Of a DNA stretch of 64,000 bases, positions 5,662 through 31,906 are shown piece by piece. Position 1 is the stretch's first letter. The number at the start of each line of letters is the position of its first letter. This DNA is from a virus. Taxonomy: Duplodnaviria > Caudoviricetes. A model generated the notes under the pieces. It was not told the DNA's origin. It did not search any database and worked only from the letters and a program-made list of their open reading frames with translations. The stretch is from IMG/VR virus record IMGVR_UViG_3300031998_000083, positions 556 through 64,555 of that record. One strand, 5' to 3'. A program made the translations under genes and the position numbers.

Positions 5662-5667
5662 AGAAAC

Positions 5668-6219
5668 ATGTACCCGCATCATCTTCACACAGGCCGACCT
5701 TTCCCCAAGGAGGTCATAGCATGTCCGCGTCGGGACAAACAGGTCATCGAGGTCATCATCCTGAAGCCGGAAATCGTCCACGACATCGAGGCCGACATCA
5801 CGCAGCTGGAGAGGCAGCGCAACCTGGAGTCGCCCATCATCACCGACGGCGACTACACCGTCAGGCGTCAGATTGACCGTGCCCTCAACCAGTGTGTGAG
5901 CCGCATGCAGGCATACCTTCTCCTCCCCTCTCCCTTCGTGAGAAGCATCTCCACGAACCACGCGGGCGACTGGGATGAAAAGAACATCTTCCTGGCACTG
6001 CCCCACAACTGGCCTCCACACTGCATCGATCCTTTGCGCGATGCCGTACACAACTATATCGTGAAGTCCGTCGAGTACAATGTCCTGCTGGCTCCCCTGA
6101 CCAACGATCCCTACACGGCCATGTGCCGCCAGGAGGCCGAAGAGTCGTACAACGAGATCAATGCGCTGATAAACTCACGCCTCGGTCCCATGAACATTCA
6201 TCCCTCATTCTTAGGTTAG
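5668..6219 (+). CDS. Connector/ring protein paralog 4 (divergent)
   Basis: 183 aa; 'LRDAVHNYIVKSVEY' helix pattern; in the structural operon. Confidence 0.45.
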   Translation: MYPHHLHTGRPFPKEVIACPRRDKQVIEVIILKPEIVHDIEADITQLERQRNLESPIITDGDYTVRRQIDRALNQCVSRMQAYLLLPSPFVRSISTNHAGDWDEKNIFLALPHNWPPHCIDPLRDAVHNYIVKSVEYNVLLAPLTNDPYTAMCRQEAEESYNEINALINSRLGPMNIHPSFLG

Positions 6220-6223
6220 CATT

Positions 6224-6514
6224 ATGGCAAAGAAGGCAGGACGTCCGAAGGGCGCACAGAACAAGGTAGGCAAGGATGAAAAGGAGTTCATCAAGGGCCT
6301 GCTCGGCGACTCCCAGGAGGAGTACCGCAATGCCTTCATGTACTACGCCAAGAACTCCCCCAACAATGCCGAAGACCGCAAGTTCTTCATCACCGTCCGC
6401 AACGAGCTGACAAAGCTGATCGTCCCGAAGCCCGTAGAGATCGACGCCACCATCGAGGCCTCCGACTTCGAAACCCTGCTTGGCATGTGCAACAAGTGGG
6501 ATGATGAGAAGTGA
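6224..6514 (+). CDS. Probable terminase small subunit
   Basis: Begins MAKKAGRPKGAQNK, a GRPKG..NK start typical of TerS; adjacent to TerL. Confidence 0.6.
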   Translation: MAKKAGRPKGAQNKVGKDEKEFIKGLLGDSQEEYRNAFMYYAKNSPNNAEDRKFFITVRNELTKLIVPKPVEIDATIEASDFETLLGMCNKWDDEK

Positions 6515-6515
6515 T

Positions 6516-6543
6516 TTCAATTTTCAATCTTCAATTTTCAATC
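6516..6543. repeat. Heptamer array (TTCAATY)x4 filling the gap between convergent terS and terL
   Basis: TTCAATT TTCAATC TTCAATT TTCAATC. Confidence 0.9.
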
Positions 6544-6545
6544 TA

Positions 6546-8777: not shown

Positions 8778-9264
8778 ACGCGAAACCTCCCAACAGACAG
8801 TAAAGGTGCAGGCACCAGTTTATGCTTGGTATGACCATGCCTATCAGCGCAAAGGGCACGGTCTTATAACAGAACTCCCATATCTTCTCGCGCATGATAT
8901 CGTCGCCTGCAGGCCAGAAGCTCTGGCAGCAGACGCCCCACTTTGCGCCCCAAATGGCGAATATCACGCCAGAGAATCCCATCGTCACCCCGTCCATCGG
9001 CCATAACGGCCCCACGACGGGAAGGAATGTCGCCACGAAGGCGATCACCGCCGAGGCGAAGATATACAGGCGCCGCTTCATGATCCACAGCACGAACAGG
9101 TTGCCCGCCAGGTGCCACACGTTAGCATGGCTGACCATCGACAGCAGGTGATCCGCTGGCGACATGTCACCGCTGGCGTAGCCCGTCTGCCGTCCGAAGG
9201 CATACCAGGCCACCATCACAGCCGTCAGCACGGCCTTCTCTATCGTCAGCCTATGCCGTCTCAT
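8743..9264 (-). CDS. Rhomboid-family intramembrane serine protease
   Basis: HANVWHLAGN (HxxxxHxxxN), GFSG (catalytic Ser) and LHLYCLLGG (catalytic His) within hydrophobic helices. Confidence 0.85.
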   Translation of the reverse strand: MRRHRLTIEKAVLTAVMVAWYAFGRQTGYASGDMSPADHLLSMVSHANVWHLAGNLFVLWIMKRRLYIFASAVIAFVATFLPVVGPLWPMDGVTMGFSGVIFAIWGAKWGVCCQSFWPAGDDIMREKIWEFCYKTVPFALIGMVIPSINWCLHLYCLLGGFAYGRWRWKHFLK

Positions 9265-9727
9265 ACTCCACCATGCTTGCCGTTTTCCTTGCCGCTGCCC
9301 TGCGGATCGTGTCTACCTTCACGCGCTTCACCGTCTTCTCGCGCCATATCTGCCCCATGCGGTCCGTGTCGATGTAGAACCGCGGGGCAGGCTCCTGAAT
9401 GGCATGGCGTACCAGCTCATAGAGCGAGCTGTACCAGAACTTCTCGGTCTGCTTCAGCCTCAGCACGGTGTCGAGCAGGTCGTAGTACATCTGCTGCATC
9501 AGCGGACTCATCTTCTCCAGCCTGCTGTGGTCGCCTCGGGTCATCGGCGATATCACCTGCAGCGCCCATCGGGCGTCGATATAGTATCTCGGTGCCTGGT
9601 GCTTGACGGTCAGCTCGTAGGCCTCCGTCTGTGTCCGGCAGCTGTACTGCCCCACGATCTCACGGTACACCCGCATGAGGTCGTTCTTCATCTCCTCCTT
9701 GTGGTTTGTCTTGCATTTCATTGTCAC
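9251..9727 (-). CDS. Conserved phage protein with duplicated (P)APR(Y/F)YID motif
   Basis: Internal duplication QAPRYYID / PAPRFYID; overlaps the rhomboid start; SD-like AAGGAGG before two candidate ATGs. Confidence 0.7.
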   Translation of the reverse strand: MTMKCKTNHKEEMKNDLMRVYREIVGQYSCRTQTEAYELTVKHQAPRYYIDARWALQVISPMTRGDHSRLEKMSPLMQQMYYDLLDTVLRLKQTEKFWYSSLYELVRHAIQEPAPRFYIDTDRMGQIWREKTVKRVKVDTIRRAAARKTASMVEYETA

Positions 9728-9743
9728 CTCCTTGTTATTGTTG

Positions 9744-16255: not shown

Positions 16256-19200
16256 CTATTTCTTGCTCTCTGCCCTCATCAGGATCTCCAGCGCTTCCTT
16301 GCGCCACTGACGGATATTCTTCATGATGGCCTCGTTGGCCTTCTCGTCACCGTCGGTACTGAACTGACGCTTTCCTGGAGCCAGCAAGTCAGGCTCGTTA
16401 CCCTTCTTACGGTTTCCCTTCCGGCCTGAAGGTGTGTCGTACTTACCGTTGCGGATCCAGTCGAGGCGCTTCTTGACCTCAGCCTTGGTTCTGTCGCCGG
16501 CATCGCTCTCACGGTAATCCTTCAGCTTGGCATCGAGCATCTCCTCCTCGCGGATATCCTCATACTCCATCCGCTCCTGGTACATGTGCTGATACCAGTT
16601 CTTATCGAGATCCTGCTTGGCGGTCAGGTCGGCCACTGGAGCCACACCCATACGCTGGGCTATGATCTTCGCATACTTACGCTTCTCCTCGGCACTCTCC
16701 GAACGAGCCAGGTTGTGCATCAGCTCCTTGTCGGTCAGGCGCTCCATACGCTGCTCAACAGCCTTGTCAAACTGCTGCTGGATCTTATCCATCTTCTCCT
16801 GGCGCTTGTCGTCGCCACGGAACCAGCCCATGACAGGCGCATCCTTCCAGTGCTTGTAGTTGGCATAGCGACGGGCCATCTCCTCATAGGGCAGCTTCTT
16901 GGCATCCTCCACGTTCATACCCAGCTCGTCGATATACTTGTTGCGCCAGGAACTTGTCGGGGCGTTCATCAGTCGCATGATGAAGAGGGCTATCTCCTTC
17001 GAGTTGGCCAGATCGTCGTTGCCTACATCCTTGGTGAACGGCATCCAGTCTGGATTACCGTAGTCCATACAGGCATTCCACATGTCGGTGAAGGTCTGCG
17101 GGTTCACGCCGACGGCACTCTGCATACAGATATTGAACACATCCTGAGCTGCTGCATACTTGTCGTAGCCCATCTTCTTGATCATGCCCTGTATGTCGGC
17201 CATCAGCGGCAGCGGGTTCACCTCGTAGTCGCCTCCCTGCTTCAGGGCAGCATCGATACCGGCACCCCACCCCTCTTTACGGATGGCCTTGCGCGTCTCT
17301 TCCGAGGCAGCCGTGCGGCTGATAAACTCACTGAACAGGTTGCCTGCGGCCATTCCCTCCGTAGGTCCGGCGATCATAGCCCTGACGGCAGCATCGGTCA
17401 GCATCTCCTTCTTCGTCTCGTCGTCGTCGCCCATCAGAAGGTATGGCAGGCTGGCACCGATGTTCCAGGCTGTGGTCACACCGAACATCATGTTCAGCAG
17501 ACGGGCCACGTCGTGACGGGCAGCGCGCGCATACTCCTTCTCGGCAGCCTTGCGGGCCTCAGCCTCATCAAGGTCGAACTGATCCTGCAGCTGGCGTGTC
17601 ATGAAGTTGATGCTGTCCTCTTTATAACCTTTCTGCGCCCTGTGGCTGAGGTTACGGGCAGCGTCCACCCACTGCCGGGTATAGGCCATCGAAGAGTTAC
17701 GGAACACTGACAGCATATTGGCAGCCACCGTGCGGTCTTTCTGGATCGCACTGACAAAGGCGCCCTCGCTCGATTGCTGCGTCAGGTTGTAGCCGATCTC
17801 GGCATCCTGAAGGGCGCGCTTACGGGCCACCTCGTCGGAGGCGCCGATATCCTTGTACTTCTTATAGCGAGCCTCGTAGATCGATCTGGCGCCGACGGCA
17901 CAGGTCACGCCGTCGACCAGCGCGTTGGGACTCATACCCAGACGGGTGGCCATCTGCACGACGTTGGTCTTCCACATCTTCCAGTCCGTAGGATCGTCCA
18001 TCAGACGGGTGTCGCCCACCTGGCGGCTCTTCCAGCGTTTCTTGAACACGGGCATATTCTCCATCGCCCACTTCCACGATCCGTAGGGGTTCATGCTGTT
18101 CTTCACGAAGTCGCCCAGATCGACGTCATGCAGGAAAGCTGGCGCCGACAGGATCTGCTTGAAGGCGGTATAGACGCGGAAGTTGATCTTCGCGGCCGTC
18201 ACACCCTTGGCGATATTCGAGATCGCCTTATCCACACTGCCAGGCTTGGCTTTGGGGTCGTATTTACCGGCAGCCATGCTGGCGGTGTTCTTGAATGCTT
18301 CCCATAGGGCATCTCCAGAGCCGTAGATGGTGTTCATGTTCTTCACCTTATTGCGGAAGGTGGTATAGCTCAACAGGGTGCCTATATCACGGTTCCACTC
18401 AGCCGTGGCAGCCCAGCGCTCCATGTCCTCCACATGCTCAATAATTAGACTGAGGGCATCGGTATGCAGGATATCCAGCGGAAGAGCGTTCTTTGTACGC
18501 TTGATGATATTGCCGGTAATAGTTGACGGTTTCGATTCTCTGTCTGGAACATTTACATCCTCTTCCTGATATCTTGCATCATTGATGATCCTAATAGGGA
18601 AGTAGTTGTCGATGGCAGCCATGGGCGCACCGAACATCCGTTCGTGTACCTTATTATAGGCTGTGCGCTTGCTCGGCAGATATTCATCCTGCAGCCAGTC
18701 GCCCAGCTCTTTCAGTCTGGGATCGAGGAAGTCCTTGATAGCCTCCACATTCTCCTCGTCGATTCCCATGTTACGGAGCTTCATACGTCCGTCGGCCATC
18801 TTGTCGGCCATGTAGATATAAAGCAGGTTGCCCTGGTTGAGCGTGAACGTCTTCGGGTTCTCACCGTCAAGCACCTCCACCTCCATCGTCGGGAGCCTGC
18901 GCTCCAGCTCGTAGAGGTCGCTCCAGCGCTTCACCTTGTCGCCGAACACCTCACGGGCCTTGGCATCCAGCTCTTCCTTGGCCTTCTGCTCGTTGACATA
19001 CGATCGGTCTACGGAGTCTATCCAGTTACGCATGAAGTAGTCGTACAGGTGGCCCTCGCCCTTCGCGTTACGGCCTCCGAACTGTCGGAGCATCTGCTCA
19101 AAGGTGGCCAGCGGCTGCAGGAAGAAGTTGGCAGGCTTACCCTTCTGCTTCTCCCTCATGGCGTCGGCAGGCTTGCCGGCAAGGTCGAAGTTGGCGATCT

Positions 19201-22200
19201 GCTGGATATGCTTCACACGCTCCTTGTCGCGCTCCACAAACTCCTTGGCACCCTGCATGCTCTCGCCGATGTTACCCTCCAGGCGACCGATGATGTCGCC
19301 GAACAGTCCGATACGTTCGATCTTGTTCTCCATCATCGCCTGATCGATGGCATCCAACAGCTCCTGCTGGGCCTTGTATGAGCGTCCGCTGCCCTTATAG
19401 TTCTCTACGGCAGCCTTATATACACGGTCAAGATCGGCATACTCGTCGCGGCTGGCCTCGATGTTCTCCTGGTACTGGAGCGCGATAGACAGACCCTCGT
19501 AATCCTGCTCCCACATCGGGGCCTCCTCGTCGTTACGGGCCATCTTCTCGACCACCTCGCTCATACGCTCACGGATCTTCTCGGCATCCATCCTGCCCTC
19601 GCGCGCCTGGCGGAAGGCCTGGATCATGCGCTGACCCTTCAGCTCCAGCCTGCCCTGCTTCTCCACTCCCTGGGCTGTCTTGCTCAGTTCCTTAACAGAA
19701 GAGAGTTTCGTCACGCGCTGGTCGAGGTTACGCAGCTGGTTGTCAACGAGGATATTCATGATGCTGTCAATTTCACGCTTGATATCTTTGGCACCGGTGG
19801 CGTTCTTCACCGCCGACAGCATACGCTCCATCTCTCCGCGTCGCAGGTTGTCGCCGAAGCCCATCTTCATAAACTCCTGGGCGAAGTCGGTCACAGCCTT
19901 CACAGTGGCCTTGTCGTAGGCCTTCTGCTGACTCATGGCGTGACGGATCTGCTGCAGCTCTGCAGCCACGCGGCGCATCTTGGCCGAAGGGCTGTCAGGA
20001 TAGCGACGCTCGTTCTCACGGGCTGCCTCCAGCACATCCTTATCGTCGCGCTTCTGGCGGTAGTCATCCAGCTTCGGGGCCGTCTGCCAGAGCGACTTCT
20101 CACGGTTCCACTGCACCAGACGCTTCGCATAGTCGAGGGCTGCCTCGCCCTGCTGCATCCTAGGCTTCTCGCTGGGGCCTGTAGCCGTCTCGCCGATGGC
20201 ATTGCGCTCACGCCACTTCTTCATATCGGCATCCCACTTGTTCCAGTACTGGCGCTCCTCCGCTGTCATCTCCGGCTCAGAACTGCCCGTGCGTTGGAAT
20301 TTTGGGGCCTCATCTGAAGATTTTCGCTTATTTTCTTGGTCGTTTGGAATATTTTTCGTATCTTTGCCCTCAGAAAAGGAGATGTTGTCATCGGCAGCGA
20401 CAGCCCTGCTGCCAAAAGTGTCAATAGGGGTTCCAGCGGTATTGGCAGATGACAACTTCTCCTTTTTCGTTTTACTGTTGTCAAATGCTGTCAGTACCCA
20501 CTTCTTCCCATTGTCCTCCTGGGCCAGAACTACACGATATCCATCCTTTGTAATCTCAATATTATTTCCGTTCTTACCTACGCTGCCATTATTGACAACA
20601 TCGTCCAGTACGGCAGACAGCTCATCGATATCCTTGAAGTCGTGCAATGTCTCGATGTGCTTTCTGATGATATGGGACAGGCCTTTTCCCCTGTAAGGGT
20701 TATGAGACTCGCCCCATACAAGATCGATATCGCCCACCTCGTCACGGTGGAACACACCCAACAAATCACCACCCTTCTTTTTAACTAAGAAGTCAACAGC
20801 TTCTTTAGGCTTACCCTTGAACTGATCGTAGACCTCGCCGAAGTCACCGGTACCGACAGGCTTAATATCCTTGATGTTCATCGAGGTACCGTCATCCATG
20901 ATAATCACCTGATCCTCGCGGGGAACATCCTCGGTCTCTGAGGCGAGGCTGTTTCTGCGCTCCTCCTCAGACATATTCAGGCGCTTATCGACATTACGTG
21001 CCTCTACCTCACCGGCCAGACGGTGATACAGATCCATGGCATCACTCTTGGCAGGAGCCTTGGTCTCTCTCAGACGATCTATCTGCTGGTTTATATTATC
21101 GTACTTACCTGCCAGATTAACGGCTTGATTCTGCAAATAGAAGGTGTATTCACCAACAGTCTTACCTACCAGGTCGGCATAGTCTTTCTTCTCTTCAGGA
21201 CTTGAACTCAGTATCTTGTTAATGGCATCAAGCTCAGTCTTAATGTTAGCCTTTTCGGCTTCCTTCTTGGCTATAATAGCATTGATACCCGTCTCTGAGG
21301 TGCTGGTATAAAGATTACCACCCTGTGCAAATCCCTCAATATCCTGAATGGCGTGCTGGATCTCATGCAACAGGGTGCCATAGACATTCTCGTTATTGAG
21401 CTGATTGTCGCCGAAGCGCTTCAACTCGTTATAACCTATCTTTATACCGTCCTCTCCGAAGCTGCCGGCTGTACCTCCCTGCAGGGAAGTGAAAGTTACC
21501 TTCAGATCCTTCAGTTCAGGATAGTATTTGAACAGTTCTTTATCCTCGCCCATCAGCTCACCAAGGGACATTGACACGCCTTGCTCGTCATACTCCTTTA
21601 CCTTATTGCCTGCTTCAAGATACTGCTTCCAGATCTTTTCCTTTTGTTTGCGCATCTCCCGATACTTAGCTTTCTGCTCTTCGGAGTAGCGGCTGTCAAT
21701 ACGGCCAGGGATGGCGTTTGTCAAGCTCTGGTACTTCTGCAGAAGATTATCTTCCTCCTTACCGAGTCGAGACACCTCTTGATCGTGTTCCAGGCGTGCT
21801 TGTTTGTATTTGCTGACGATATCAACGTCGGCATCGGGGATCTCGTAGCGCCACTGACCGTCGGCACCGCGCTCCCAGCCTGTAGCATACTTGATTGCCT
21901 TGGGATCCACTCCGGCTTTCTCGGAATCCTCTGCCAGGGCCAGGTTTCGGCTCCTCTCGTCGCCACCTTCGGCCTTGTCGGCAGCCTGAGTGCCCTCCTT
22001 GCCTACCATCTGGAACATGATATCATCACGTCCGCCGACGGCATCCATGGCGACCTGCTTACGGTTGGCATCCTTCTGATCTTCGGTACCGGTATTGTCA
22101 TAGGTGCGCACGTCAAGACCGGAATTCTTCAGGGCCTCAACGATCTCAGGAGAAGTGGTCTCAGGCACTACGGCCACGGCAAACTCGTTCAGATATACAG

Positions 22201-25200
22201 GACGCTCAAATTTGGTCTCAAAGTAACCCGTCGGGAACTTCTTCTGCACCGCGTTGACAAACTGCTCGATGGTCTGACGGTCCTCAGCAGACAGATCGTA
22301 ATTGTATTCCCTCTTCAAGTAACTGCTGATGTTCTTATAATGGTCAAGGGCGTCGCCCAGGATATTATCACCATTATACCAGTCGCCATTACCAAGCTTG
22401 TCAGCAATGGCGCGAAGCTTCTGGCCCCACTCCTCATGGAAAGCCTCATGCTCTTCCTTAGTGGTGTTCAGATTGGCTTTGTTCTTCCTGATACCTTCAA
22501 GTGTTTTCTCCTTGCTGGCCACCTTTGCTATCCAGTTGCCGATGCTGCTCCAGTTAGTGGCGCCATTGAGGCCTTCCTTCTTCATCAGCTTGGAAGCATT
22601 CTCCAGGGTGTTGCGTACCCACTTTTGCCGGCCCTGATAGTCGGTACCGTTGAAGAGCCATTCCTCCACACCGTAACTGTCGGCCTTATCTTGCAGCCAT
22701 TTGTCGAAGTCCTGCTGGAGATTCTGCTCCTTCACGGCCTTAGCAGCCTTGCTTATAGTCTCTTCGACATTCGGTTTGCCTTCACTGACAGCCGATCTGC
22801 GCACAGCATACTCAAAGTTATTGAGGTTATGCAGAAGCTCTCCGTACTTCTCCAGCTCTTCAAGACGAGCGCGTTGCAGGTTTGTGAACGGGGTATTCTT
22901 GTCTTCCTTGATCCTTTCCTTAAGCTTTGCTATACGCTCCTCGGCAGGCGTCACAGGTTCGCCGATGCTCTCCTTATAAGCACGGTACATCTCGGCGATC
23001 TCCTTGATCTGCTCTTCAGGTAGATTGCGTACCTCCAGATTACCTTTGTCGGTAAGCTCATCGATACGCTTTGCAACATCCTCACCATAAGGATTCTCGT
23101 TGAGTACCAGCTCTGGGTTCAGACCCTTCTCCTTCATATACCAGTAGGCAAGGCGCTCCTGTCCTGCCTCCTTATCAAGCCAGGTGTCAAAGGCCATCCT
23201 CATATAGCTGGCTACCTCTCCGGCATCCTCATTCAGGCTTCTGATATCTTTCCAGAACTTAGACATTCCCTTATCGCTCATACGCTTCTGCACCTGCGGA
23301 TAGGTAGGAGTCCAGGCATCTGCGGTAAAGGTGCCGGCATTGTTGCCTGTGCGGGAGTCTATCAGACTTGATTTCGGGATCAGGGAGATATCGCCGTAGT
23401 CTGTGTGCATGTGGTTGTTGGTGTCAACGACTGCAAGGCTCGGGTTAGCCAGTCCTCCCTGCTTCAACACCTTTCGGAGCTTATCCTCACTCAGGTTATG
23501 AACACCCATCAGGGTACGCTCGATCTCTGCCTGAGAGCGAAGCTTACCGCTGGCAGCCTGGCGCATACGCTCACGAGGATCCACACCATTGAGCATATCG
23601 GCCAGGATGCGGTCTGCAATCTGGTTGGCATTGCGGTACTTCCAGCCCATCATCTTAGCCACACCCTCCCAGAAGCGGTTGAGGATATTCTTCAGGCGCT
23701 GCATGGCGGTTACAGCCTCAGCCTTGCCAAAGACACCACCGTTCTCGGCTGCCACTTCGTTGGCGATCTCACGCAGGCGCTCGGCACCTCGCTTACCGGA
23801 GAACTGGGTGATGATCTCCTCGATGAAGTCATCCTCCCTGCCCTCTTTAGAGAGTTCAGGATAGTCACGCTTCACGCGGTCAATGATCGGCTGCACTAGC
23901 TTGTCGGTGAGCATCACACGCTTGATATCGTCCCACTCCTCGGGACTCGTCTGACGCTTCATCTCTGCCCACAGGTGGCCGTACTCATGCACCGGCGTCT
24001 CGCTCATGGCAATACGCGGATCCAGGTAGATCTTTCCCTTATAGGTATATCCGTAGGCATGGCCGTCCTTCGTCTTGAACAACATCGGGCGTCCATGCAT
24101 ATCAAACACCCTCGCCTGCATGGAGGCGGCTTCTTTCTGATCCAGCATGTCCTGCAGGCCTTCATTCTCGATGCGGTCAAGAAGATCCCAGCGTAATGAC
24201 AGCATGCCGTAGCCGTACTTCTCAGACATTGCGTTCAAGTTGTCGGCCATTACCTGGCCAAGACCTTTGACACCGTGTTTGGCAATATATTCCTGCCTGA
24301 TCTTCTCTTCTAACTCATCCACGTTCAGGCCTTCTTCATCAAGCATCTGCTCGTTGATACGCTTATAGGCCGCTACGACCTCTTCAGGAGTCAGCTTTGC
24401 CACTTTATCCTGAATATCCAGAGACTCCCGGATATTGGGATTCTTGACAATCCTTTCCTCGATCGGCCTCATATCAACGGTCTGTGCGACGCTGCCTTCA
24501 TCCACCTTCTGCTGGCGGATCGGATTGCCGTTGATGTCCTCGGTGACGGATCCGGCAGGCTTTGCGCCGATCTTCACACCCCGTTTCTCCAGCTCTGCAC
24601 GCTGGGCAGGCGTAACGACGTTGTAAGGCACCTCGATATCGGTCCCCTCCAGCTGTTTGGCGATCATGTCGGCCACCTCGCTGTCAGGCACGATGCGGTT
24701 CACCTTGCTATAGCGCGAAAGTGTCACCTGGCGCTGTCGGTCGGCAGGCAGCTGCCCGTTCACGACTCCACTGTGCCAGTCCACATTACCTACGGCGTCC
24801 TTGGCTCCTTCGGCCTTATAGCCGCTGGTCAGTTCACTCTCAGGGATCTCCACCTCTACAACAACCAGCTCGGGACGCTTATAGGCGCTGGTGAACTGAT
24901 CGTTAAGCCCGGATGTAGAGGTATGGAAATAGGGATTGTAGGCAGCAGGCACATTGCCCTGGCCCTTCTGTCCCTTGTTAAGCACGAACTTTCCGTTCTT
25001 GATAAGATCTGGACGCTCCTCGGCCTTCTCCCATACACCGATCTCAGTAGGCTCGCGCATCTCACCGTCCACCTTCGCGGACATCGGAGGATAGAGCTTA
25101 CCGTCGATCAGCTGCATAGCCCGGTAGCGCTTCACGGTCTTACCGTTGTTCAGCTCTTCAAGCTCGGCCTCATCTGTAACCTTCTGCGGCTTGATCTCCG

Positions 25201-28200
25201 CTTCGGGATCTTCAACCGCCATACGGCTGTTATAGTCATCAAGGATCCTCTGACCTTCCTTCCAGTCGGTGCTTACCTCGATGCCAGCCTGACGGAGGTG
25301 ATCCACCACGGCGTCACGCAGGGCCTTTTCCTGCTGCTCGGGAGTAACAGGCTGCCAGTCCTTGGGACGTCGAACCATGCTCTCACGGGTAAAGAAGTCG
25401 GTATTTCGGCCCTTGTTGTCCTTGAATCCGAAACGCTTGTAAAAGTCCATCAGGCGCTTGATGGAGGTGGCGCCGAAGCTGGTGTCAGGTGTCAGATCCA
25501 GCGTCCAGCCTTTCTCGTCGGCAAGCCTTGCAAGGTCTTCCATGAAGCGGGTGCCGTTGCCCTGTCCCTGACTGTCAACAATGAAATGTGTCAGCGTGAG
25601 GTGGTCGCCCAGACGCGACAGGGTGACGTTCTTAAGGCCGTACTCCTTCAGGAGGTCGGGATCATCGATGGAGATATCCCGCTCGTCAAGCTTCTGCAGG
25701 GCTGAGTCGAAGGCAGGATTGCCTTGCTCCACCCTATGCTCATCCATCTTTGCAAGGCGCTCGTCATACTTCCTGACGGCCTCATCCATCTTCTGGTAGC
25801 GGATACCGCTGTCGATCCAGTCCTGTTCCTCGCGGCGCATGGCCTCCTCGGCGGTCTTCATACGGTCGCGGATGATCATGTTGGAAATGTCTGTCGGCTT
25901 CTCGGCACCAGTAAGGACGTTGTAAATGATGTTGCGGAGATCCTGATCCGAATACTGTTCCTTCATTCCTTCCGGCAGGGACTCATGGACGGACTCGGCA
26001 AACTGCTTCAGGCTCTTTCCCTTTCCATTGGGAGCCAGCCACGGGTTGAAGCCCTTGGTGTCGCCACCGAAGCCCCGGCTGCCGAAGCCTGTCTCATCCT
26101 TCAGGCCTACGATCGTGTTGCCTCCCTGGTCATAGCTTGTGTATGCCAGGAATCCCTCTCCTGGCTTTGGCACGTCGCCAAGTGCATCGGCTATGTATTC
26201 CTCTACAGTACGCGGCTGCATAGACTCATCATCAAGGGCTATGGCAGCCTCCTCATTGCCTTTGTACAGCTTACGGAGCCGCTCGACCTTCTCCTTCCGC
26301 GTGCCATAGCCGATGGTACGCTCGGCAGCGGACGCCCTGTCGCGCTGTTCCAGGCTGATCAGATCCTCGAAATGATCTTTCCTGTATTCGTCGTAAAGTT
26401 CATTGAATGCCTTTCTGTCGCCGGACTCGTAGAGATTCCACAGCTTTTCCCTTTCCTCGTCAGTCAACACGCTGACGACCTTGTCGGCGCTCTTCTTGTT
26501 CCTGAAGACTCCCAGAAGCTTCTCTTCAGTCGTGAGATTCTTCTGCCAGACGTTGTTTTCGATGGCCTCACCGGTCTTGATGACGTTATACGACTCCCGT
26601 CTGGCCTCTCCGATGGGATTGCCGTCGGCGTCGTAGTCGCGGCGGGTGACAACTGCCTGCCCGTCATGGCTGATATGCTCAATGGTCATATCAGACCGTA
26701 TGCCGCGGCTGTCGGTGAAGCTGAAGGTGCGCCCGACGTTGTCCTGGACGGCCTTCTGGTATTTCTTCGCGGTCTTCTGGTCTACGGCTGGTAGTCCGTC
26801 AGCAGACCCAGTGCCACCCTCTCCCGTCTCGAGAGTTTGTCCGGATCCGGCTCTTCCGGCTGCTGGCTGTCCTCCAGCTGCTCCAACTTCTCCATCAGCT
26901 CCGGTCTCTGCTGCAGGAGTCTGCCTAGACGCTCCCGCGACTCCCTCAGCTGGACGTTCTTCGGATGATCCTTGTACTTCTCCGTCTGCGGGGGGTACCA
27001 TACCACTTCCTCCTCCGTGCACTGGTTCCCCGGATACACCTGGTCGAAGATGTCGCACATCTTGCTGAAGTATGCGTCGTCCCAACTCGTCCACCCTTCG
27101 TTCAGTAGCGGGGGTAACGTCTGGTATTTGTCGTGCAACATCACGTAGTCCTCGTCCGAGAGAGGCAGCTTGATCTGCTGTAAATCTTCCTTCGTTAATT
27201 CCATACTCAAAAATATCTAATAGTTCGTTTAACTTTGCATCATCAAGGGAGTAATCCCACTTCTCAGCCTCATCAGCAGAGACGCGGCCTCCTTCAGGAC
27301 GTTCTGCGGCCTTGTTGCCGCTGTTGTCGAAGCCGATGATCTCCACGTCAGGATGGAGCTTCCGCAGGTCGGCGATCTTTCCCTGATTCTCCAGGAAGGC
27401 CTCGTTCACGAAATACTCCAGAGCGAGGAACCGTCCTGTCCTGAGTCCTCTTTCAACGGTATTGTTGAACGAGGTGTAGGCATCATTGTAGACGGCTACC
27501 ACCTGAATGTCTGTCATTCCGGCCTTCTTCGCCTGCTTTATGGCTGCGTCAAGGCTCTTGACATTATTAAAGGCAGAGTCGTAGACCATTCCGCGTCCGC
27601 TAAAGTCCATGTTCCTGGTGGCGGTACTCTTGCCTGCGCCTCCTGCTCCCGTCAGCAGCGTGATGCTCGTCTTTCCGCTTGCGACGGCGTCTTTGAGCAT
27701 CTTATCGTAAATAACGGCCGTCAGCCGCTTTCCCTGTGCTTTGAAATCCGGTACGTTCTTCCCGTTATAACCTATCGGAGTAAGAGCGTCTCTGAGTTTA
27801 TCGGGATCCAGAAGATTACCATGCAACTTGATGTAAGTATCAACGATCTCGTCCATGTGTTCGTCTACCCACTTGGCCTGACTCTCTGGATCTGTTGCAA
27901 AGTTACGAATTTCTTTTGGATTTACCAAATTTATCCACGACTTTTTTGCATTATATACCTCAGAAAGTGCATTTTCGGGTACTCCGGCGGCTTTTGCTTC
28001 CTGATAAGCGACCTCTAACTGGTCAAGATCCTTGGCTCTGATGATGTTGGCGGTATGTGTAGTGAAGGCCTCAGCCAGCTTTGCCTCAGCCTCCTGGCCA
28101 CGTCTGGCAAGATCCTGCCAGTACTCAGCCTTCTGACGGGCCTCGGCCAGCTTATCCTCATGGGCTTCGAGGTCGGCCATGTCCGTAATGGATGAGGTGT

Positions 28201-31200
28201 CTGTCTTCTGAAGCTTATCATACTCCCTTGCAGCACTCTCGGCTATCTGGGCGATCATCTTACCGGCCTTCTCCTCGCCGTATTTCTCTGTCAGCTCGGC
28301 CAGGGTGTCCTCGGGCGTAGCCTTCTCGTACACCTTCTTACCCTTCTCGTCAACGGGAATACGGGAAGGAGCGGCGCTTCCGGATTCCAGCCGCCCATCA
28401 TCTTCGGCTGATGCGCTTACTTCACCGGCGGCATTTCCGCTCTGTATTTCTTTACCCTTTCCTTCCTGCTGGCCCTCAGGCTCTTGGGCTGCCTCCAAAG
28501 GAACCTCGGGCGTTTCCATTGATCCTTCGGGTGTAATCTCCTCCGGACGGTTGGCAGCATCGATCTCGTTGCTTTTCGCCTTGCGGTACTCGTCGATGTC
28601 AAATGGCTGCGGCTCTCCCAGGATTTCCGCAGCATTGCCGTTTTCGTCAGGAACCACTTCCGTCTTTGCCCACGTCATGTTTCCGTTCTCGTCGGATATG
28701 GTGCTTACCATGTAGGTCTTGCCGTCTGCCCCGACGAATGTCTCTCCGACCTCCTGTGGAACCTCAGGCGTGCCTGGTGCCAGCTCGATGGAGTCGTCGG
28801 CAACCTTCATCAGCTGTCCACGGAGTCCGTCCATACTGTCGTTGGCCTCGATCAGTCTGCGAGGATCAGTCACACCGGTCACCACTACATCATTGGGATT
28901 GACAACGTCGATCTCACCGGTATTGGCATCGCGGACGATCACGGCCCCGCTGCCGTCGGTAGATACCAGCTTGCCCTCGGGAGTGATCTGGAAGTGGCCT
29001 GCGCTGACATACACATCCCTACCCCTCGAATTGCCTGTGATCAGCATACCACTGTCAGGATGGGTGTTTCTGCGGATCTCGGCATTGGCGGCATCCACCT
29101 GCTCATCGACGGTCTTGATGGCCTGATCCATCATACCCTGCATACGGGCTGCGGCATTGAAGTACTCCTTGGCTGCCTCCAGCATCGGTCCGTCCACGTC
29201 GCGGCGCATGGCCAGCTCTGCCATCTTCTCGTCAGGATAGTCGGCAGCAGCCATCACCTCTTCGGCAAACTCCTGGCCGTACTGTGCAAGGGCCTCTTCT
29301 GCTACCTGAGCATCTACAAGGGCGAAGTGGCGCTCCTCGGGAGTGATCTTCTTTCCTTCCTCAAACCTGCGTCTGGGATTATACTCATCCTCAGGGAAGG
29401 CATTGCGGGAGATTACACCATATACATTATTAAACTGGTCGGGATCGAGGCTGGTGTCATTGGGGTTAAGGGCCTTCTGCACCATATCTGCGGCATCCAA
29501 GGGGGATATGCCGTTGGTCTCGGCGATCTCGAGGACAATAGCTTTGTGCTGCTCCTTGCTGGTGGCGTTCCACATGTTGACGGCATCATTGAGGCTGAAC
29601 TCGCTCTGACACTCCTCGCGCCACTGCTCGGCATCGCTGAAGGTATCAAACTTCAGGTCGCGCACACAGTTACCGTCCTTGTCGCGGGTCTTCACAATCA
29701 CACTGCCATCGGCATTATGTACGATATCGGCACCTGTCTCGAGTCCGGCACGGTAGACACCTCCCAGGACTCCTGCCACCTTCTGCTTCACGACGGCTGG
29801 GATCTCGGGATTGCTCATGAAAGCGTTATAGTTGTCGGCCAGCTGACGGCGCATCTGCTCACCCTCGGGAGTAAGCTTTTTCTTACCGTTCACCTCGCTG
29901 ATAGCTGCATCAGGGTGCATGCTGCTAAGAGTCTCCAGCAGGCTACGACCTTCGGCTGTGTCGCGCACATAAGCCTCCTCTTCCTTGGTGAACTTCATGC
30001 CAGAAGGTTTGGCTGACATGGCCTTACCGACGGCTTTACGCACACCGTTCTTATAGATATCGGCACCTGTCTCGAGGGTCTTGGTCAGCAGATGACCACC
30101 AGAGGCCTTCATCACTCCCAGCTTCTCCATGGCCTCCAGGGATCCCTCGAAGGGATTGGTGAAGCCTTCCTCGCCCTGTACCATCTTGGCCAGTTCCTCG
30201 GTGGCATACATCGTCTCGGCCTCAGCAGCGAAACCGGCTGCCTTGGCACCTACACGGGAGATACCGGTCAACGGCTGGGAGAGAGCCTGGGACATGGCAC
30301 CCGTAACACCGAAGGCTGCACCGGTGGCCAGACCCTCGGCGGTGGATCCAGCCAGTCGCATGGGGTCAAACTCGCTGTCGCGCATCTGACGGGCTGCCTC
30401 TGACGTGGCGTTATAGCCTCCCATGGTGAGGGAGCTGCTGATAACATGCTGCATCAGGTAGTTCTTCATCCTCGCGCCTACACTGTTCTCGAGGGCTGCA
30501 CCTACGATACTACGGGCAGCAGTCTCACTGAGGCCCTTTCCCATGAGATTCTGGATCTGGCGCTCGGCCACCTTCTTAGCCACCTGTCCTGACACCTTGC
30601 CATACAGGCCGAAGAAGGGAGCATCGGCAGCAAAGGACACACCCATCTGGGTAAGCTTCGCTCCTGTGCCTGGGTTATAGTTGGGGTTGAGACCTTCCTC
30701 GGTCATGGCCTCAGCCTGGTTCTTGATCTGACGCTGGCCCTTAGACTCGGTGATGGTGTTATAGAGCATACCGATGATGCTGTTACCCAGTCCGTTCATG
30801 ATATACTCTACGGACGATTTGGGAAGTTCGCGCTTCACCAACGTATCGGTAAGCCTGGTGGCAAGGTCCTGCTGGATCTTGGGCTTGATGATGTTCTCGA
30901 TGTATTCGGTACGGTCGATACCCATCTTATCAGCCTCCTTACCTACCTCCTCGGCAAAGGCACTGTCCTTATACAGACCTTCCATCTGCTGCTGGAGATA
31001 GTTGAGGATCTTCTCAGGATCTTTAGCCTCGTTGGCCTCGCGGACATTACCAAGGATGCCAAAGCCTCCGGCCTGTCCAATAGATCTTACGGCACTGGTA
31101 TTTTCGCGGCCCTCGTTGAAGACCTCGCTGGCTTTCTTGTCAAACTCGGCAATGGCCTTGTCTACGGCTGGAGCGACAACGGAGCTGGTAATACGGTTGA

Positions 31201-31906
31201 CACCCTGCTGCACCTCATCCTCCCACTGGCCCTGGGTTCTGACCACATGCTGGTTAGCCTCAGGGCTGCCGGTATCTACGAGCGGCTGACTGCGGCGCTC
31301 TTCCTCGCGCTGCATATTCTGGAGCTGCCGGACGGTATAGTCATTCATCCGCTCGATCTCTGCATGCTGGGCGACGGACAGATCCTGACGGAAGGAAGCA
31401 TTATAGCCGATACCATCAGGCTGATCGGTGGTACGCACCTGACCAGGAGCAAACGGTTTATATTCACGGCTCTGGCCTGTGCCACTGCCTGCGGTTCCCC
31501 AGGGAGTACCAGCGGCCTTATCCTCAGGAGCCTCAACGGCTGGAGCCTGATATGCAGCTGCCGGAGCCTGCTGGGGCTTCGGCTGGCTCTGCGGCTGCTG
31601 TTTTTTAGGCTTGACATTGGATCCGCTAGGATGACGTTTGAGGAAGTCGTCATAGGTGGCGTGATCCACTTCCTGCATCTCACCGCCTATCTTTATCCGC
31701 CTAACTGTCATATCGCGGTCAAACTGACCGTACTCAGGCACGTTCCAACCTGCACCTTTTGCGGCTTCGTATATGGAACGGCGGACATCCTTATTGTCCA
31801 TGTTCCGGTTAAAATCATCAAAAGAACCAAGGTCAAAGCCGTCATCAGTAAGATTGTCGTACATCTTACGACGATTCTCACTTCCGTATATCTTGCCGTT
31901 TTCCAT
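16256..31906 (-). CDS. Giant (5216 aa) polyvalent, probably virion-ejected protein
   Basis: Zeta-toxin-like P-loop (LTGAGGAGKST ~27625-27655), GNAT (QGQGNGT...FYKRFGF ~25410-25660), ART-like YRAM/FHTS domain (~24580-25150), HEYGH and HEIQH zincin motifs, LPD23-like TGWERGADGQWRYEI, PBECR-like DIDLVWG...GLSHIIRKH (~20480-20860). Confidence 0.9.
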   Translation of the reverse strand: MENGKIYGSENRRKMYDNLTDDGFDLGSFDDFNRNMDNKDVRRSIYEAAKGAGWNVPEYGQFDRDMTVRRIKIGGEMQEVDHATYDDFLKRHPSGSNVKPKKQQPQSQPKPQQAPAAAYQAPAVEAPEDKAAGTPWGTAGSGTGQSREYKPFAPGQVRTTDQPDGIGYNASFRQDLSVAQHAEIERMNDYTVRQLQNMQREEERRSQPLVDTGSPEANQHVVRTQGQWEDEVQQGVNRITSSVVAPAVDKAIAEFDKKASEVFNEGRENTSAVRSIGQAGGFGILGNVREANEAKDPEKILNYLQQQMEGLYKDSAFAEEVGKEADKMGIDRTEYIENIIKPKIQQDLATRLTDTLVKRELPKSSVEYIMNGLGNSIIGMLYNTITESKGQRQIKNQAEAMTEEGLNPNYNPGTGAKLTQMGVSFAADAPFFGLYGKVSGQVAKKVAERQIQNLMGKGLSETAARSIVGAALENSVGARMKNYLMQHVISSSLTMGGYNATSEAARQMRDSEFDPMRLAGSTAEGLATGAAFGVTGAMSQALSQPLTGISRVGAKAAGFAAEAETMYATEELAKMVQGEEGFTNPFEGSLEAMEKLGVMKASGGHLLTKTLETGADIYKNGVRKAVGKAMSAKPSGMKFTKEEEAYVRDTAEGRSLLETLSSMHPDAAISEVNGKKKLTPEGEQMRRQLADNYNAFMSNPEIPAVVKQKVAGVLGGVYRAGLETGADIVHNADGSVIVKTRDKDGNCVRDLKFDTFSDAEQWREECQSEFSLNDAVNMWNATSKEQHKAIVLEIAETNGISPLDAADMVQKALNPNDTSLDPDQFNNVYGVISRNAFPEDEYNPRRRFEEGKKITPEERHFALVDAQVAEEALAQYGQEFAEEVMAAADYPDEKMAELAMRRDVDGPMLEAAKEYFNAAARMQGMMDQAIKTVDEQVDAANAEIRRNTHPDSGMLITGNSRGRDVYVSAGHFQITPEGKLVSTDGSGAVIVRDANTGEIDVVNPNDVVVTGVTDPRRLIEANDSMDGLRGQLMKVADDSIELAPGTPEVPQEVGETFVGADGKTYMVSTISDENGNMTWAKTEVVPDENGNAAEILGEPQPFDIDEYRKAKSNEIDAANRPEEITPEGSMETPEVPLEAAQEPEGQQEGKGKEIQSGNAAGEVSASAEDDGRLESGSAAPSRIPVDEKGKKVYEKATPEDTLAELTEKYGEEKAGKMIAQIAESAAREYDKLQKTDTSSITDMADLEAHEDKLAEARQKAEYWQDLARRGQEAEAKLAEAFTTHTANIIRAKDLDQLEVAYQEAKAAGVPENALSEVYNAKKSWINLVNPKEIRNFATDPESQAKWVDEHMDEIVDTYIKLHGNLLDPDKLRDALTPIGYNGKNVPDFKAQGKRLTAVIYDKMLKDAVASGKTSITLLTGAGGAGKSTATRNMDFSGRGMVYDSAFNNVKSLDAAIKQAKKAGMTDIQVVAVYNDAYTSFNNTVERGLRTGRFLALEYFVNEAFLENQGKIADLRKLHPDVEIIGFDNSGNKAAERPEGGRVSADEAEKWDYSLDDAKLNELLDIFEYGINEGRFTADQAASLGRGLRDVARQIPDVTPATERRVDELGRRILQQDVRHLRPGVSGEPVHGGGSGMVPPADGEVQGSSEERPAEGVAGASRQTPAAETGADGEVGAAGGQPAAGRAGSGQTLETGEGGTGSADGLPAVDQKTAKKYQKAVQDNVGRTFSFTDSRGIRSDMTIEHISHDGQAVVTRRDYDADGNPIGEARRESYNVIKTGEAIENNVWQKNLTTEEKLLGVFRNKKSADKVVSVLTDEEREKLWNLYESGDRKAFNELYDEYRKDHFEDLISLEQRDRASAAERTIGYGTRKEKVERLRKLYKGNEEAAIALDDESMQPRTVEEYIADALGDVPKPGEGFLAYTSYDQGGNTIVGLKDETGFGSRGFGGDTKGFNPWLAPNGKGKSLKQFAESVHESLPEGMKEQYSDQDLRNIIYNVLTGAEKPTDISNMIIRDRMKTAEEAMRREEQDWIDSGIRYQKMDEAVRKYDERLAKMDEHRVEQGNPAFDSALQKLDERDISIDDPDLLKEYGLKNVTLSRLGDHLTLTHFIVDSQGQGNGTRFMEDLARLADEKGWTLDLTPDTSFGATSIKRLMDFYKRFGFKDNKGRNTDFFTRESMVRRPKDWQPVTPEQQEKALRDAVVDHLRQAGIEVSTDWKEGQRILDDYNSRMAVEDPEAEIKPQKVTDEAELEELNNGKTVKRYRAMQLIDGKLYPPMSAKVDGEMREPTEIGVWEKAEERPDLIKNGKFVLNKGQKGQGNVPAAYNPYFHTSTSGLNDQFTSAYKRPELVVVEVEIPESELTSGYKAEGAKDAVGNVDWHSGVVNGQLPADRQRQVTLSRYSKVNRIVPDSEVADMIAKQLEGTDIEVPYNVVTPAQRAELEKRGVKIGAKPAGSVTEDINGNPIRQQKVDEGSVAQTVDMRPIEERIVKNPNIRESLDIQDKVAKLTPEEVVAAYKRINEQMLDEEGLNVDELEEKIRQEYIAKHGVKGLGQVMADNLNAMSEKYGYGMLSLRWDLLDRIENEGLQDMLDQKEAASMQARVFDMHGRPMLFKTKDGHAYGYTYKGKIYLDPRIAMSETPVHEYGHLWAEMKRQTSPEEWDDIKRVMLTDKLVQPIIDRVKRDYPELSKEGREDDFIEEIITQFSGKRGAERLREIANEVAAENGGVFGKAEAVTAMQRLKNILNRFWEGVAKMMGWKYRNANQIADRILADMLNGVDPRERMRQAASGKLRSQAEIERTLMGVHNLSEDKLRKVLKQGGLANPSLAVVDTNNHMHTDYGDISLIPKSSLIDSRTGNNAGTFTADAWTPTYPQVQKRMSDKGMSKFWKDIRSLNEDAGEVASYMRMAFDTWLDKEAGQERLAYWYMKEKGLNPELVLNENPYGEDVAKRIDELTDKGNLEVRNLPEEQIKEIAEMYRAYKESIGEPVTPAEERIAKLKERIKEDKNTPFTNLQRARLEELEKYGELLHNLNNFEYAVRRSAVSEGKPNVEETISKAAKAVKEQNLQQDFDKWLQDKADSYGVEEWLFNGTDYQGRQKWVRNTLENASKLMKKEGLNGATNWSSIGNWIAKVASKEKTLEGIRKNKANLNTTKEEHEAFHEEWGQKLRAIADKLGNGDWYNGDNILGDALDHYKNISSYLKREYNYDLSAEDRQTIEQFVNAVQKKFPTGYFETKFERPVYLNEFAVAVVPETTSPEIVEALKNSGLDVRTYDNTGTEDQKDANRKQVAMDAVGGRDDIMFQMVGKEGTQAADKAEGGDERSRNLALAEDSEKAGVDPKAIKYATGWERGADGQWRYEIPDADVDIVSKYKQARLEHDQEVSRLGKEEDNLLQKYQSLTNAIPGRIDSRYSEEQKAKYREMRKQKEKIWKQYLEAGNKVKEYDEQGVSMSLGELMGEDKELFKYYPELKDLKVTFTSLQGGTAGSFGEDGIKIGYNELKRFGDNQLNNENVYGTLLHEIQHAIQDIEGFAQGGNLYTSTSETGINAIIAKKEAEKANIKTELDAINKILSSSPEEKKDYADLVGKTVGEYTFYLQNQAVNLAGKYDNINQQIDRLRETKAPAKSDAMDLYHRLAGEVEARNVDKRLNMSEEERRNSLASETEDVPREDQVIIMDDGTSMNIKDIKPVGTGDFGEVYDQFKGKPKEAVDFLVKKKGGDLLGVFHRDEVGDIDLVWGESHNPYRGKGLSHIIRKHIETLHDFKDIDELSAVLDDVVNNGSVGKNGNNIEITKDGYRVVLAQEDNGKKWVLTAFDNSKTKKEKLSSANTAGTPIDTFGSRAVAADDNISFSEGKDTKNIPNDQENKRKSSDEAPKFQRTGSSEPEMTAEERQYWNKWDADMKKWRERNAIGETATGPSEKPRMQQGEAALDYAKRLVQWNREKSLWQTAPKLDDYRQKRDDKDVLEAARENERRYPDSPSAKMRRVAAELQQIRHAMSQQKAYDKATVKAVTDFAQEFMKMGFGDNLRRGEMERMLSAVKNATGAKDIKREIDSIMNILVDNQLRNLDQRVTKLSSVKELSKTAQGVEKQGRLELKGQRMIQAFRQAREGRMDAEKIRERMSEVVEKMARNDEEAPMWEQDYEGLSIALQYQENIEASRDEYADLDRVYKAAVENYKGSGRSYKAQQELLDAIDQAMMENKIERIGLFGDIIGRLEGNIGESMQGAKEFVERDKERVKHIQQIANFDLAGKPADAMREKQKGKPANFFLQPLATFEQMLRQFGGRNAKGEGHLYDYFMRNWIDSVDRSYVNEQKAKEELDAKAREVFGDKVKRWSDLYELERRLPTMEVEVLDGENPKTFTLNQGNLLYIYMADKMADGRMKLRNMGIDEENVEAIKDFLDPRLKELGDWLQDEYLPSKRTAYNKVHERMFGAPMAAIDNYFPIRIINDARYQEEDVNVPDRESKPSTITGNIIKRTKNALPLDILHTDALSLIIEHVEDMERWAATAEWNRDIGTLLSYTTFRNKVKNMNTIYGSGDALWEAFKNTASMAAGKYDPKAKPGSVDKAISNIAKGVTAAKINFRVYTAFKQILSAPAFLHDVDLGDFVKNSMNPYGSWKWAMENMPVFKKRWKSRQVGDTRLMDDPTDWKMWKTNVVQMATRLGMSPNALVDGVTCAVGARSIYEARYKKYKDIGASDEVARKRALQDAEIGYNLTQQSSEGAFVSAIQKDRTVAANMLSVFRNSSMAYTRQWVDAARNLSHRAQKGYKEDSINFMTRQLQDQFDLDEAEARKAAEKEYARAARHDVARLLNMMFGVTTAWNIGASLPYLLMGDDDETKKEMLTDAAVRAMIAGPTEGMAAGNLFSEFISRTAASEETRKAIRKEGWGAGIDAALKQGGDYEVNPLPLMADIQGMIKKMGYDKYAAAQDVFNICMQSAVGVNPQTFTDMWNACMDYGNPDWMPFTKDVGNDDLANSKEIALFIMRLMNAPTSSWRNKYIDELGMNVEDAKKLPYEEMARRYANYKHWKDAPVMGWFRGDDKRQEKMDKIQQQFDKAVEQRMERLTDKELMHNLARSESAEEKRKYAKIIAQRMGVAPVADLTAKQDLDKNWYQHMYQERMEYEDIREEEMLDAKLKDYRESDAGDRTKAEVKKRLDWIRNGKYDTPSGRKGNRKKGNEPDLLAPGKRQFSTDGDEKANEAIMKNIRQWRKEALEILMRAESKK
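20374..20473 (+). ncRNA. Candidate antisense structured RNA inside the giant gene
   Basis: TTG-N20-TATCTTTG promoter (20336-20366); 18/19-bp closing stem, two inner hairpins, U-tract. Confidence 0.55.
26782..27204 (-). CDS. Nested out-of-frame gene (140 aa, acidic) within the giant gene
   Basis: Native G/C-ending codon usage in this frame; AT-rich region with A at -3 before the ATG; the host frame here reads as a G/A/R-rich linker. Confidence 0.7.
   Translation of the reverse strand: MELTKEDLQQIKLPLSDEDYVMLHDKYQTLPPLLNEGWTSWDDAYFSKMCDIFDQVYPGNQCTEEEVVWYPPQTEKYKDHPKNVQLRESRERLGRLLQQRPELMEKLEQLEDSQQPEEPDPDKLSRRERVALGLLTDYQP

Follow-up and report, generated by a model that had tools for sequence, protein, structure and literature searches.

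A probable selected gene nested out of frame over the end of the zeta-toxin-fold kinase module in a giant phage polyvalent gene

A 64,000-nucleotide (nt) stretch of DNA from a Caudoviricetes virus (IMG/VR virus record IMGVR_UViG_3300031998_000083, positions 556 to 64,555; this whole stretch is called the window here) contains a giant gene for a polyvalent protein, inside which a second open reading frame (ORF), named X, runs on the same strand in a different frame and is complete with its own start and stop codons. The window makes up most of a 64.5-kb record, 81% complete, obtained from a bovine gut metagenome. Our analysis makes it highly probable that X is a real, selected and separately encoded gene and that the DNA under it is dual coding. 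The elements on which the argument turns are as follows.

16256..31906, minus strand: giant host gene, a single ORF of 5216 amino acids (aa), polyvalent protein.
26782..27204, minus strand: nested gene X, with ATG at 27204-27202 and TAG at 26784-26782, 140 aa, in the +1 frame of the giant gene.
27062..27949, minus strand: zeta-toxin-fold P-loop kinase module, giant aa 1320-1615, Walker A motif GAGGAGKS.

The coordinates and the sequence of X bear out an earlier note on this DNA, which had described a 140-aa acidic ORF on the same strand in another frame: the product (MELTKEDLQQ...LTDYQP) has 30 D+E residues and 17 K+R residues, with an isoelectric point of 4.53. Viral and metagenome contig scans together with database protein look-ups brought in six further lineages of related giant genes, whose kinase modules are 49-81% identical to that of the window, so that seven nested lineages can be compared (the window, L001/L005, L003/L006, L010, L025, L007/L008 and L018/L019). 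The +1 frame is intact from the identical ATG in all seven, and stops in the nested frame of homologous regions, for which the earlier note had advised to look, occur in none of them. The shared nested reading is M-x-LTKEDLxxIKLPLSDEDY...W(Y/F/T/E)PPxT(E/K)..., and all seven copies are attached to the same zeta-like module.

Substitution patterns speak for selection on both frames. Over the 250 codons upstream, differences at giant codon positions 1, 2 and 3 number, for example, 33, 23 and 111, and the upstream kinase domain has a proportion of synonymous differences (pS) of 0.6-0.8 with a ratio of non-synonymous to synonymous proportions (pN/pS) of 0.2-0.3. In the overlap the giant-frame pS goes down to 0.23-0.32 with pN/pS of about 0.95 (first ~110 overlap codons), against a ratio of non-synonymous to synonymous rates (dN/dS) of 0.41-0.57 in the X frame, and the per-frame check that the earlier note had proposed thus comes out in favour of the nested gene. 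When the changes were classed by their effect in both frames, after the approach of PMC4316641, the per-site rates were 0.27 for changes silent in the giant and altering X, 0.41 for those altering the giant and silent in X, and 0.23 for those altering both; since each of these rates is lower than that of synonymous change upstream, constraint acts on both frames, and more strongly on X. The same is visible among strain variants taken from contigs of other rumen runs, which fall at giant positions 1, 2 and 3 in the numbers 11, 7 and 1 inside X and 5, 1 and 15 outside it (Fisher p=1.8e-5), so that the giant wobble position holds 1 of 19 variants inside X and 15 of 21 outside. The giant frame in its turn has no stop across X in any of five lineages, when 7.6-12.4 would be expected from each X protein and the phage codon usage (P<1/2000 in each lineage), and the linker insertions and deletions in the relatives' alignments keep the frame; this argues for true dual coding and not for two adjacent genes.

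Two strain contigs carry length changes within X. One of them (X4) has a 1-nt deletion at 27014 offset by a 1-nt insertion after 27017, amid changes at 27001-27016, and the other (X7) has a 3-nt insertion after 26858; both frames remain open in both contigs, the depth of which is low (4-5).

The same data bear on the idea that X is the relic of an old gene which was overrun by read-through of the giant and is still recognisable without being expressed any longer. We regard this as most improbable, because X is intact in seven of seven lineages at the above kinase identities, its frame evolves at a dN/dS of about 0.5, the giant wobble sites are suppressed both between lineages and within strains, and the initiation region, described below, is conserved.

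Homology gives a further line of evidence. A search profile built from three nested X proteins was compared with 1.84 billion representative proteins and matched 26 clusters, 16 of them at E<=1e-10; the family profile matches the window X at E=6e-48. None of the 26 matches is a giant protein carrying the X domain in frame, many begin at profile position 1, and several proteins contain two tandem X copies, an arrangement that is frequent among the free-standing genes. Free-standing members are P0011 (L009), P0012 (L012), P0008 (L011), P0010 (L015/L016) and P0016 (L017). Their genes are AT-rich (GC content 0.37-0.41), come from rumen or gut phage contigs and one Muribaculaceae genome, and have 7-14 stops per 100 codons in the frame corresponding to the giant's. 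P0012 is a "hypothetical protein" of the Muribaculaceae metagenome-assembled genome (MAG) GCA_017557625.1, and neither P0011 nor P0012 matches the window's giant protein. Pfam, PHROGs, NCBIfam and PADLOC hold no family for X, giving only a weak phrog_17336 match for P0006 and chance-level rows; a PDB sequence search found nothing for X, nor anything for the kinase profile; the ESM Atlas gave no usable match for X, and Rfam only a chance microRNA row. Judged by sequence comparison, X is a member of a real, undescribed family that is recognised by no domain library searched.

The protein itself divides into two parts.

26884..27204, minus strand: conserved part of X, residues 1-107 (alignment A4).
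26782..26883, minus strand: variable acidic C-terminal tail of X, residues 108-140, with a predicted local distance difference test score (pLDDT) of 61-71.

The conserved part bears the motifs LTKEDLxxIKLPLSDEDYxxLH ... AY..K...FDQ..PGN ... WYPPQTEKYKDHP, followed by a helical hairpin, and the tail varies in length between relatives, the whole of X being 88-204 aa. Modelled by AlphaFold2 with the 26-row alignment A4, X is predicted to be all-helical (pLDDT 83.8, predicted template modelling score 0.68, 72 residues at 90 or above), and block pLDDT over residues 1-107 is 79-98 except for one block of 65 at residues 31-40. Foldseek against PDB and BFVD and a wide VIA search found no credible fold match for X, with no Foldseek PDB match at E<=0.001 and a best VIA Z of 3.7.

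Among the other family members, P0012 (L012:5001-6071) and P0011 (L009:4001-5158) are composed of two X repeats and a C-terminal extension, and the extension of P0012 matches positions 1279-1388 of phrog_10089, "DarB-like antirestriction", at E=2.7e-16. In the Muribaculaceae MAG the P0012 gene belongs to a small group of short genes, set between glycoside hydrolases and SusC/SusD. A second motif, (E/R)(E/Y)G(I/L)(P/Q)...PP.WLEWP.DQ.WPP.WL, follows the X domain in some nested and free-standing members; it is located at residues ~150-180 of P0009 (the nested X of L010) and between the two X repeats in P0006 and P0008, and the window X lacks it.

Codon usage across the overlap is dictated by X. 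The nested frame has a codon adaptation index (CAI) of 0.570 and a third-position GC content (GC3) of 0.81, compared with 0.400 and 0.31 for the giant frame over the same DNA, values lower than in every in-frame window of the gene; other in-frame 140-codon windows of the giant have a CAI of 0.709 +/- 0.063 with a minimum of 0.538, and +1-frame windows elsewhere in it have 0.387 with a maximum of 0.455. The earlier statement that the phage-typical codons are found in the nested frame and not in the giant frame is thereby confirmed.

Some points weigh against X being a gene or limit the evidence for it. When the giant protein sequence was held fixed and synonymous codons were redrawn, the longest +1 run was 139 +/- 24 codons, and a run of at least 144 had a probability of 0.29; the length of X is within chance, and the case for the gene therefore rests on conservation, homology and the substitution pattern. 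The substitution signal fades at the deepest divergence, where changes at X positions 1, 2 and 3 are 83, 85 and 100 over 82 columns. Residues ~25-40 of X are poorly conserved, and the exact window X protein was uncalled by any gene caller in the protein collection. A chance open frame would be easiest to conceive over a disordered G/A/R/E/P linker with few T at codon position 2, where +1 stops are rare, and beside the probability of 0.29 for such a run somewhere in the giant, the second-longest +1 run (113 codons) is likewise placed on a low-complexity stretch. Such an origin is nevertheless scarcely credible in view of the homology to free-standing genes (E down to 1e-62), the confident predicted fold of X, the patterns of substitutions and strain variants, the codon usage favouring X, and the fact that one third of the ORF lies over folded giant sequence containing hydrophobic residues. 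The second-longest run itself (31348-31686, minus strand, offset 220) covers the N-terminal Q/P/A-rich low-complexity region of the giant and is probably a compositional artefact; low-complexity stretches have open +1 runs because of their few T at codon position 2.

The module at whose end X begins deserves a closer description, since the first part of X is read over a folded segment of it.

27062..27205, minus strand: doubly structured overlap, giant aa 1568-1615 (last kinase helices) together with X residues 1-47, conserved in both frames.
26780..27061, minus strand: disordered linker (G/A/R/E/P) read in the giant frame, aa 1616-1709, covering the core and tail of X, pLDDT ~30.

The earlier note had recognised a zeta-toxin domain next to the nested ORF, and this identification is upheld: on the domain alone Pfam Zeta_toxin (PF06414) scores 23.7 bits against a cut-off of 22.3, and five of five relatives match with a best E of 1e-9. 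An AlphaFold2 model of giant aa 1320-1709, made with the 9-row alignment A7, has block pLDDT 73-97 over model residues ~21-290 and is confident to aa ~1615, with ~30 beyond; Foldseek with this kinase model retrieves gonococcal zeta_1 (6eph/6epg) at E=5e-9, and 1gvn (pSM19035 zeta) and 2p5t (PezT) at a probability of 0.96-0.98. By its predicted structure the neighbouring module is a true zeta-toxin-fold P-loop kinase. The ORF had been placed right after the zeta domain, which is not so, as the ATG of X corresponds to giant aa 1568 and the start therefore falls inside the zeta-like module. The giant-frame helices over the X start (H258-265, 268-274 and 280-301) have pLDDT 83-89, and X has block pLDDT 79/93/87/65/92 over residues 1-50, so that some 47 codons are modelled with confidence as folded in either frame. 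The remaining ~93 X codons lie under the disordered linker, which is variable in length among relatives and whose sole conserved island, VPPADGEVQGS, is a shadow of the X motif WYPPQTEKYKD. Hence the view that the giant frame reads as a disordered linker across the nested ORF holds for the distal two thirds and fails for the first ~47 codons, which are confident kinase helices. Frame 0 would accordingly complete a zeta-toxin-fold kinase with its last helices and continue as a disordered linker into the next module of a virion-type polyvalent protein, frame +1 would supply a separate 140-aa acidic all-helical protein, and both readings appear to be kept by selection.

The start region suggests how such a frame could be expressed.

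27205..27239, minus strand: AT-rich stretch before the X start, 74% AT, giant codons K-L-N-E-L-L-D-I-F-E.
27208..27215, minus strand: box TATTTTTG, 3 nt before the ATG, at -11..-4.

The 35 nt before the ATG are 74% AT compared with a giant mean of 45%, a level reached by just 0.22% of the 35-nt windows of that gene. This upstream stretch is near-invariant in four lineages, giant wobble sites included, and its AT content is 0.66-0.80 in all seven. The genes of the phage have a Shine-Dalgarno (SD) sequence in 5 of 41 cases by a loose test and possess AT-rich leaders with a mean of 0.63. We take 27205-27239 to be a probable SD-less translation-initiation region on these sequence features, from which X would be translated separately at its conserved ATG as is typical of the phage's starts; the translated message may be the giant's mRNA or an internal transcript. 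The ATG coincides with residue 1 of the free-standing homologues.

A leaderless transcript had been suggested by the earlier note on the ground of the box at 27215-27208 ending 3 nt before the ATG. The position of the box is right, and TATTTTTG fits the Bacteroidota -7 promoter consensus, TAnnTTTG. A TAnnTTTG box is found in four of the seven nested lineages and is absent in L007, L019 and L025, and in the window sequence upstream of the box there is no TTTG at the -33 spacing, for which reason a sigma-70 or -33 element was rejected as a candidate; with the box in only four of seven lineages and no -33 partner, the idea of a leaderless transcript is weak.

Another route of expression would be programmed +1/-2 frameshifting or transcriptional slippage at the T-run ATTTTTG, the product being a giant cut short, with X as its C-terminal end. 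Phages are known to use programmed frameshifting, as in tail chaperones, and a run of five T lies 4-8 nt before the ATG in the window. A +1-frame stop, on the other hand, stands 1-4 codons before the ATG in every lineage (one codon before it in L007 and L025), therefore leaving little room for frameshift entry and almost no space for a shift site; the T-run is absent in L007, L019 and L025; the ATG is kept in seven of seven lineages and matches residue 1 of free-standing homologues; and a shifted product would lose the conserved last kinase helices. Frameshifting or slippage is thus very unlikely, and separate initiation at the ATG is preferred.

Concerning the function of X, our leading guess, a tentative one drawn from where the gene lies, is that X would bind the polyvalent protein's zeta-like kinase and hold it in check inside the cell that produces the phage or carries it as a lysogen. 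Its basis is that X is encoded on top of the zeta module in every nested lineage. Under this guess the free-standing copies would be orphan immunity genes. In its fullest form, which we judge unlikely, the proposal would make X the antidote to the phage's own injected zeta-type kinase, written over the end of the toxin module so that the module shuffling of polyvalent proteins could never part the two, with the free-standing and tandem copies in rival phages and Muribaculaceae as escaped orphan immunity against kinases injected by such phages. The toxin-antitoxin reading of X and the kinase is a hypothesis, not a finding.

Several results are unfavourable to an antidote role. Pfam, PDB sequence, Foldseek and VIA searches revealed no resemblance of X, in sequence or in fold, to the antitoxins epsilon, epsilon_1 or PezA, with the limit that a missing fold match does not exclude a family. 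The same note had advised a search for stand-alone homologues downstream of zeta-like genes; of the five free-standing X genes, which occupy four loci, none follows a zeta-like gene or lies next to one, contrary to what the note's proposal predicts, and the upstream neighbours of two of them (298 aa in L009 and 217 aa in L015) do not resemble the kinase module. The Muribaculaceae genome with X (G001), which may be incomplete, contains no match to the kinase profile. Conversely, the zeta-like proteins of L023 and L024 (~640 aa) end ~55 residues past the would-be X start and are without X. The pairing of X and kinase across genomes is therefore inconsistent: it holds for all seven nested copies, the free-standing genes are unpaired, and L023 and L024 have the kinase without X.

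The earlier note had gone further and taken the locus for a captured toxin-antitoxin pair, which we read as one of epsilon/zeta type: the toxin would have joined the giant by in-frame fusion, and the antidote, encoded by an older gene, would survive beneath it. The true zeta-toxin fold of the module, the small, acidic and helical nature of X, its attachment to the module in seven of seven nested lineages and the better codon usage of its frame are all consistent with such a capture. Classical epsilon-zeta and PezA-PezT operons have the antitoxin before the toxin. X instead has its start within the kinase module's 3' end and extends past it downstream, which puts the toxin first and X second, the reverse of the classical operons. 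Moreover, neither Pfam nor the fold searches link X to epsilon, epsilon_1 or PezA, the free-standing X genes never come after a zeta-like gene, and the evidence on relative age is also adverse. The giant-frame helices under the X start can be aligned, though weakly, with the C-termini of X-less relatives, so the giant frame may be older there. In the tree of X domains nested and free-standing forms interleave, and an approximately unbiased (AU) test rejects the nested forms as one clade (delta log likelihood 52, p=9e-5), a p-value that is somewhat optimistic because a quick tree was already at hand when the groups were defined. As all nested copies occupy one homologous site, this rejection speaks for repeated departures of free-standing copies from the overlap, more than for one capture of an old gene. 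In the distal two thirds X appears to be the dominant frame, judging by codon usage and by the near-neutral, disordered linker. Taken together, an ancestral nested frame in a captured pair is doubtful, and capture of a toxin-antitoxin pair is unlikely; the AU test and the X-less relatives hint that X was born by overprinting on the kinase 3' end and later left the overlap.

The other reading to be weighed is that X acts independently of the kinase, as a small acidic counter-defence or host-takeover protein linked to the zeta module only by shared DNA. Free-standing copies occur in accessory regions with RNA-repair and methylase genes (L009, L015), forms with two repeats carry a fused segment that is also found in DarB-like antirestriction giants (phrog_10089, as above), and there are zeta-like relatives without X. 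These neighbours and the fusion place the X family in phage-host conflict generally. An independent role has to face that X is unrecognised by family, defence and anti-defence libraries, that the neighbourhood evidence comes from a handful of contigs, and that the link of X to its module is kept while downstream modules are shuffled. We hold such a role as possible to the same tentative degree as the restraint of the kinase, an antidote role and an independent conflict role being about equally likely.

The gene content beside two free-standing copies can be given here. L009:1-3952 encodes an AAA_33 kinase, Thg1, RlaP, Tpt1/PTS_2-RNA and two DNA methylases, and L015:3917-5092 encodes RtcB.

Modules beyond the linker differ from lineage to lineage while the kinase is kept, and X therefore travels with the kinase module. 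In L018 (1-2556) and L019 (3-983) the linker after the nested X enters a different module carrying the motif ...LRKFSGWGGLGKAFN, a typical feature of DarB-like methylase/helicase giants at their N-termini; [kinase + X] is therefore a unit that is shuffled among polyvalent architectures.

Known systems offer several comparisons. Lambda Rz1, which encodes a ~60-aa lipoprotein, lies wholly inside the ~150 codons of Rz in the +1 frame, and both proteins are functional. X is alike in being a complete same-strand out-of-frame nested gene with its own start in a double-stranded DNA phage. It differs in encoding a 140-aa predicted soluble helical protein inside a 5216-codon polyvalent gene and in belonging to a family that also has free-standing members, whereas the Rz and Rz1 products are partners in one complex.

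In polymorphic toxin systems the immunity genes normally follow the stop codon of the toxin gene. The small gene here likewise starts at the 3' end of a toxin-domain region and has orphan copies elsewhere, but X lies inside a continuing reading frame and not past a toxin stop.

The resemblance to epsilon/zeta, PezA/PezT and gonococcal epsilon_1/zeta_1 (1gvn, 2p5t, 6epg) is in the kinase fold with its Walker A motif and in a small acidic helical protein encoded together with it; the differences are that X has no detectable antitoxin similarity, that the order is reversed and the genes overlap, and that the kinase here belongs to a larger injected polypeptide with several domains.

Small viruses offer examples of overprinting (phiX174 A/B/K and D/E, tombusvirus p22/p19), reviewed in PMC8227390 and PMC11044054, and the likeness is a long same-strand dual coding with one frame dominating the codons and the other mostly disordered. 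The present case differs from them in a large genome (~64.5 kb, 81% complete) with no obvious compression pressure, in ~47 codons confidently folded in both frames, and in a family that also has non-overlapping members.

With regard to the host gene, the 5216-aa protein carries Zeta_toxin, PBECR5 (E=1e-23), LPD23 (3e-11) and PBECR1 (5e-17), and these domain matches make it a typical polyvalent protein as defined by Iyer et al. 2017 (PMC5512222), with several unrelated conflict-type domains in one ORF. Zeta-toxin-like kinases are listed among the domains of polyvalent proteins in that paper; the words "overlapping" and "frameshift" are absent from its text, which describes no case of a gene encoded in a different frame of a polyvalent protein.

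Gene callers and domain surveys read giant polyvalent genes as one frame, and nested genes like X are thus missed systematically. The locus is a study case for dual coding, with seven nested lineages, free-standing homologues as natural controls and ~47 doubly folded codons, and the direction of origin, capture or birth and escape, is at stake. If X did restrain a zeta-type kinase, it would represent a new class of antitoxin or immunity protein and a new linkage of antidote to toxin module. Mutations silent in one frame are possible, which makes the question directly testable.

Some further observations concern the relatives and the searches. By blastn and tblastn no match was found among GenBank phages; a first viral-contig scan with the giant segment gave nothing and a repeat viral-contig scan the same two records only, and a genome-contig scan with the kinase alignment gave nothing. 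L002 was discarded as a relative since its match is limited to the low-complexity acidic tail. Antisense ORFs at 26646-27068 and 25724-26794 (plus strand) in the window, at L001:3032-3574 (minus) and at L010:5032-5532 (minus) were rejected as genes, being shadows of the sense codon bias of X, because their codon position 2 is the most variable nucleotide position.

The closest relative's record (G002, of L001/L021) is classed by IMG/VR as a provirus, so these phages may be temperate, a point that matters for whether an antidote would be needed. The kinase-bearing open frame is at least 4264 aa long in G002 and at least 4523 aa in G003. In the relative L010 the polyvalent gene is split: a 2115-aa ORF (278-6625) with the kinase and the nested X ends ~1 kb past X, and a second ORF (6456-10568, more than 1371 aa) follows in another frame with an overlap of ~170 nt. 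The gene caller of the L010 source called the nested X (P0009) and missed the surrounding 2115-aa ORF.

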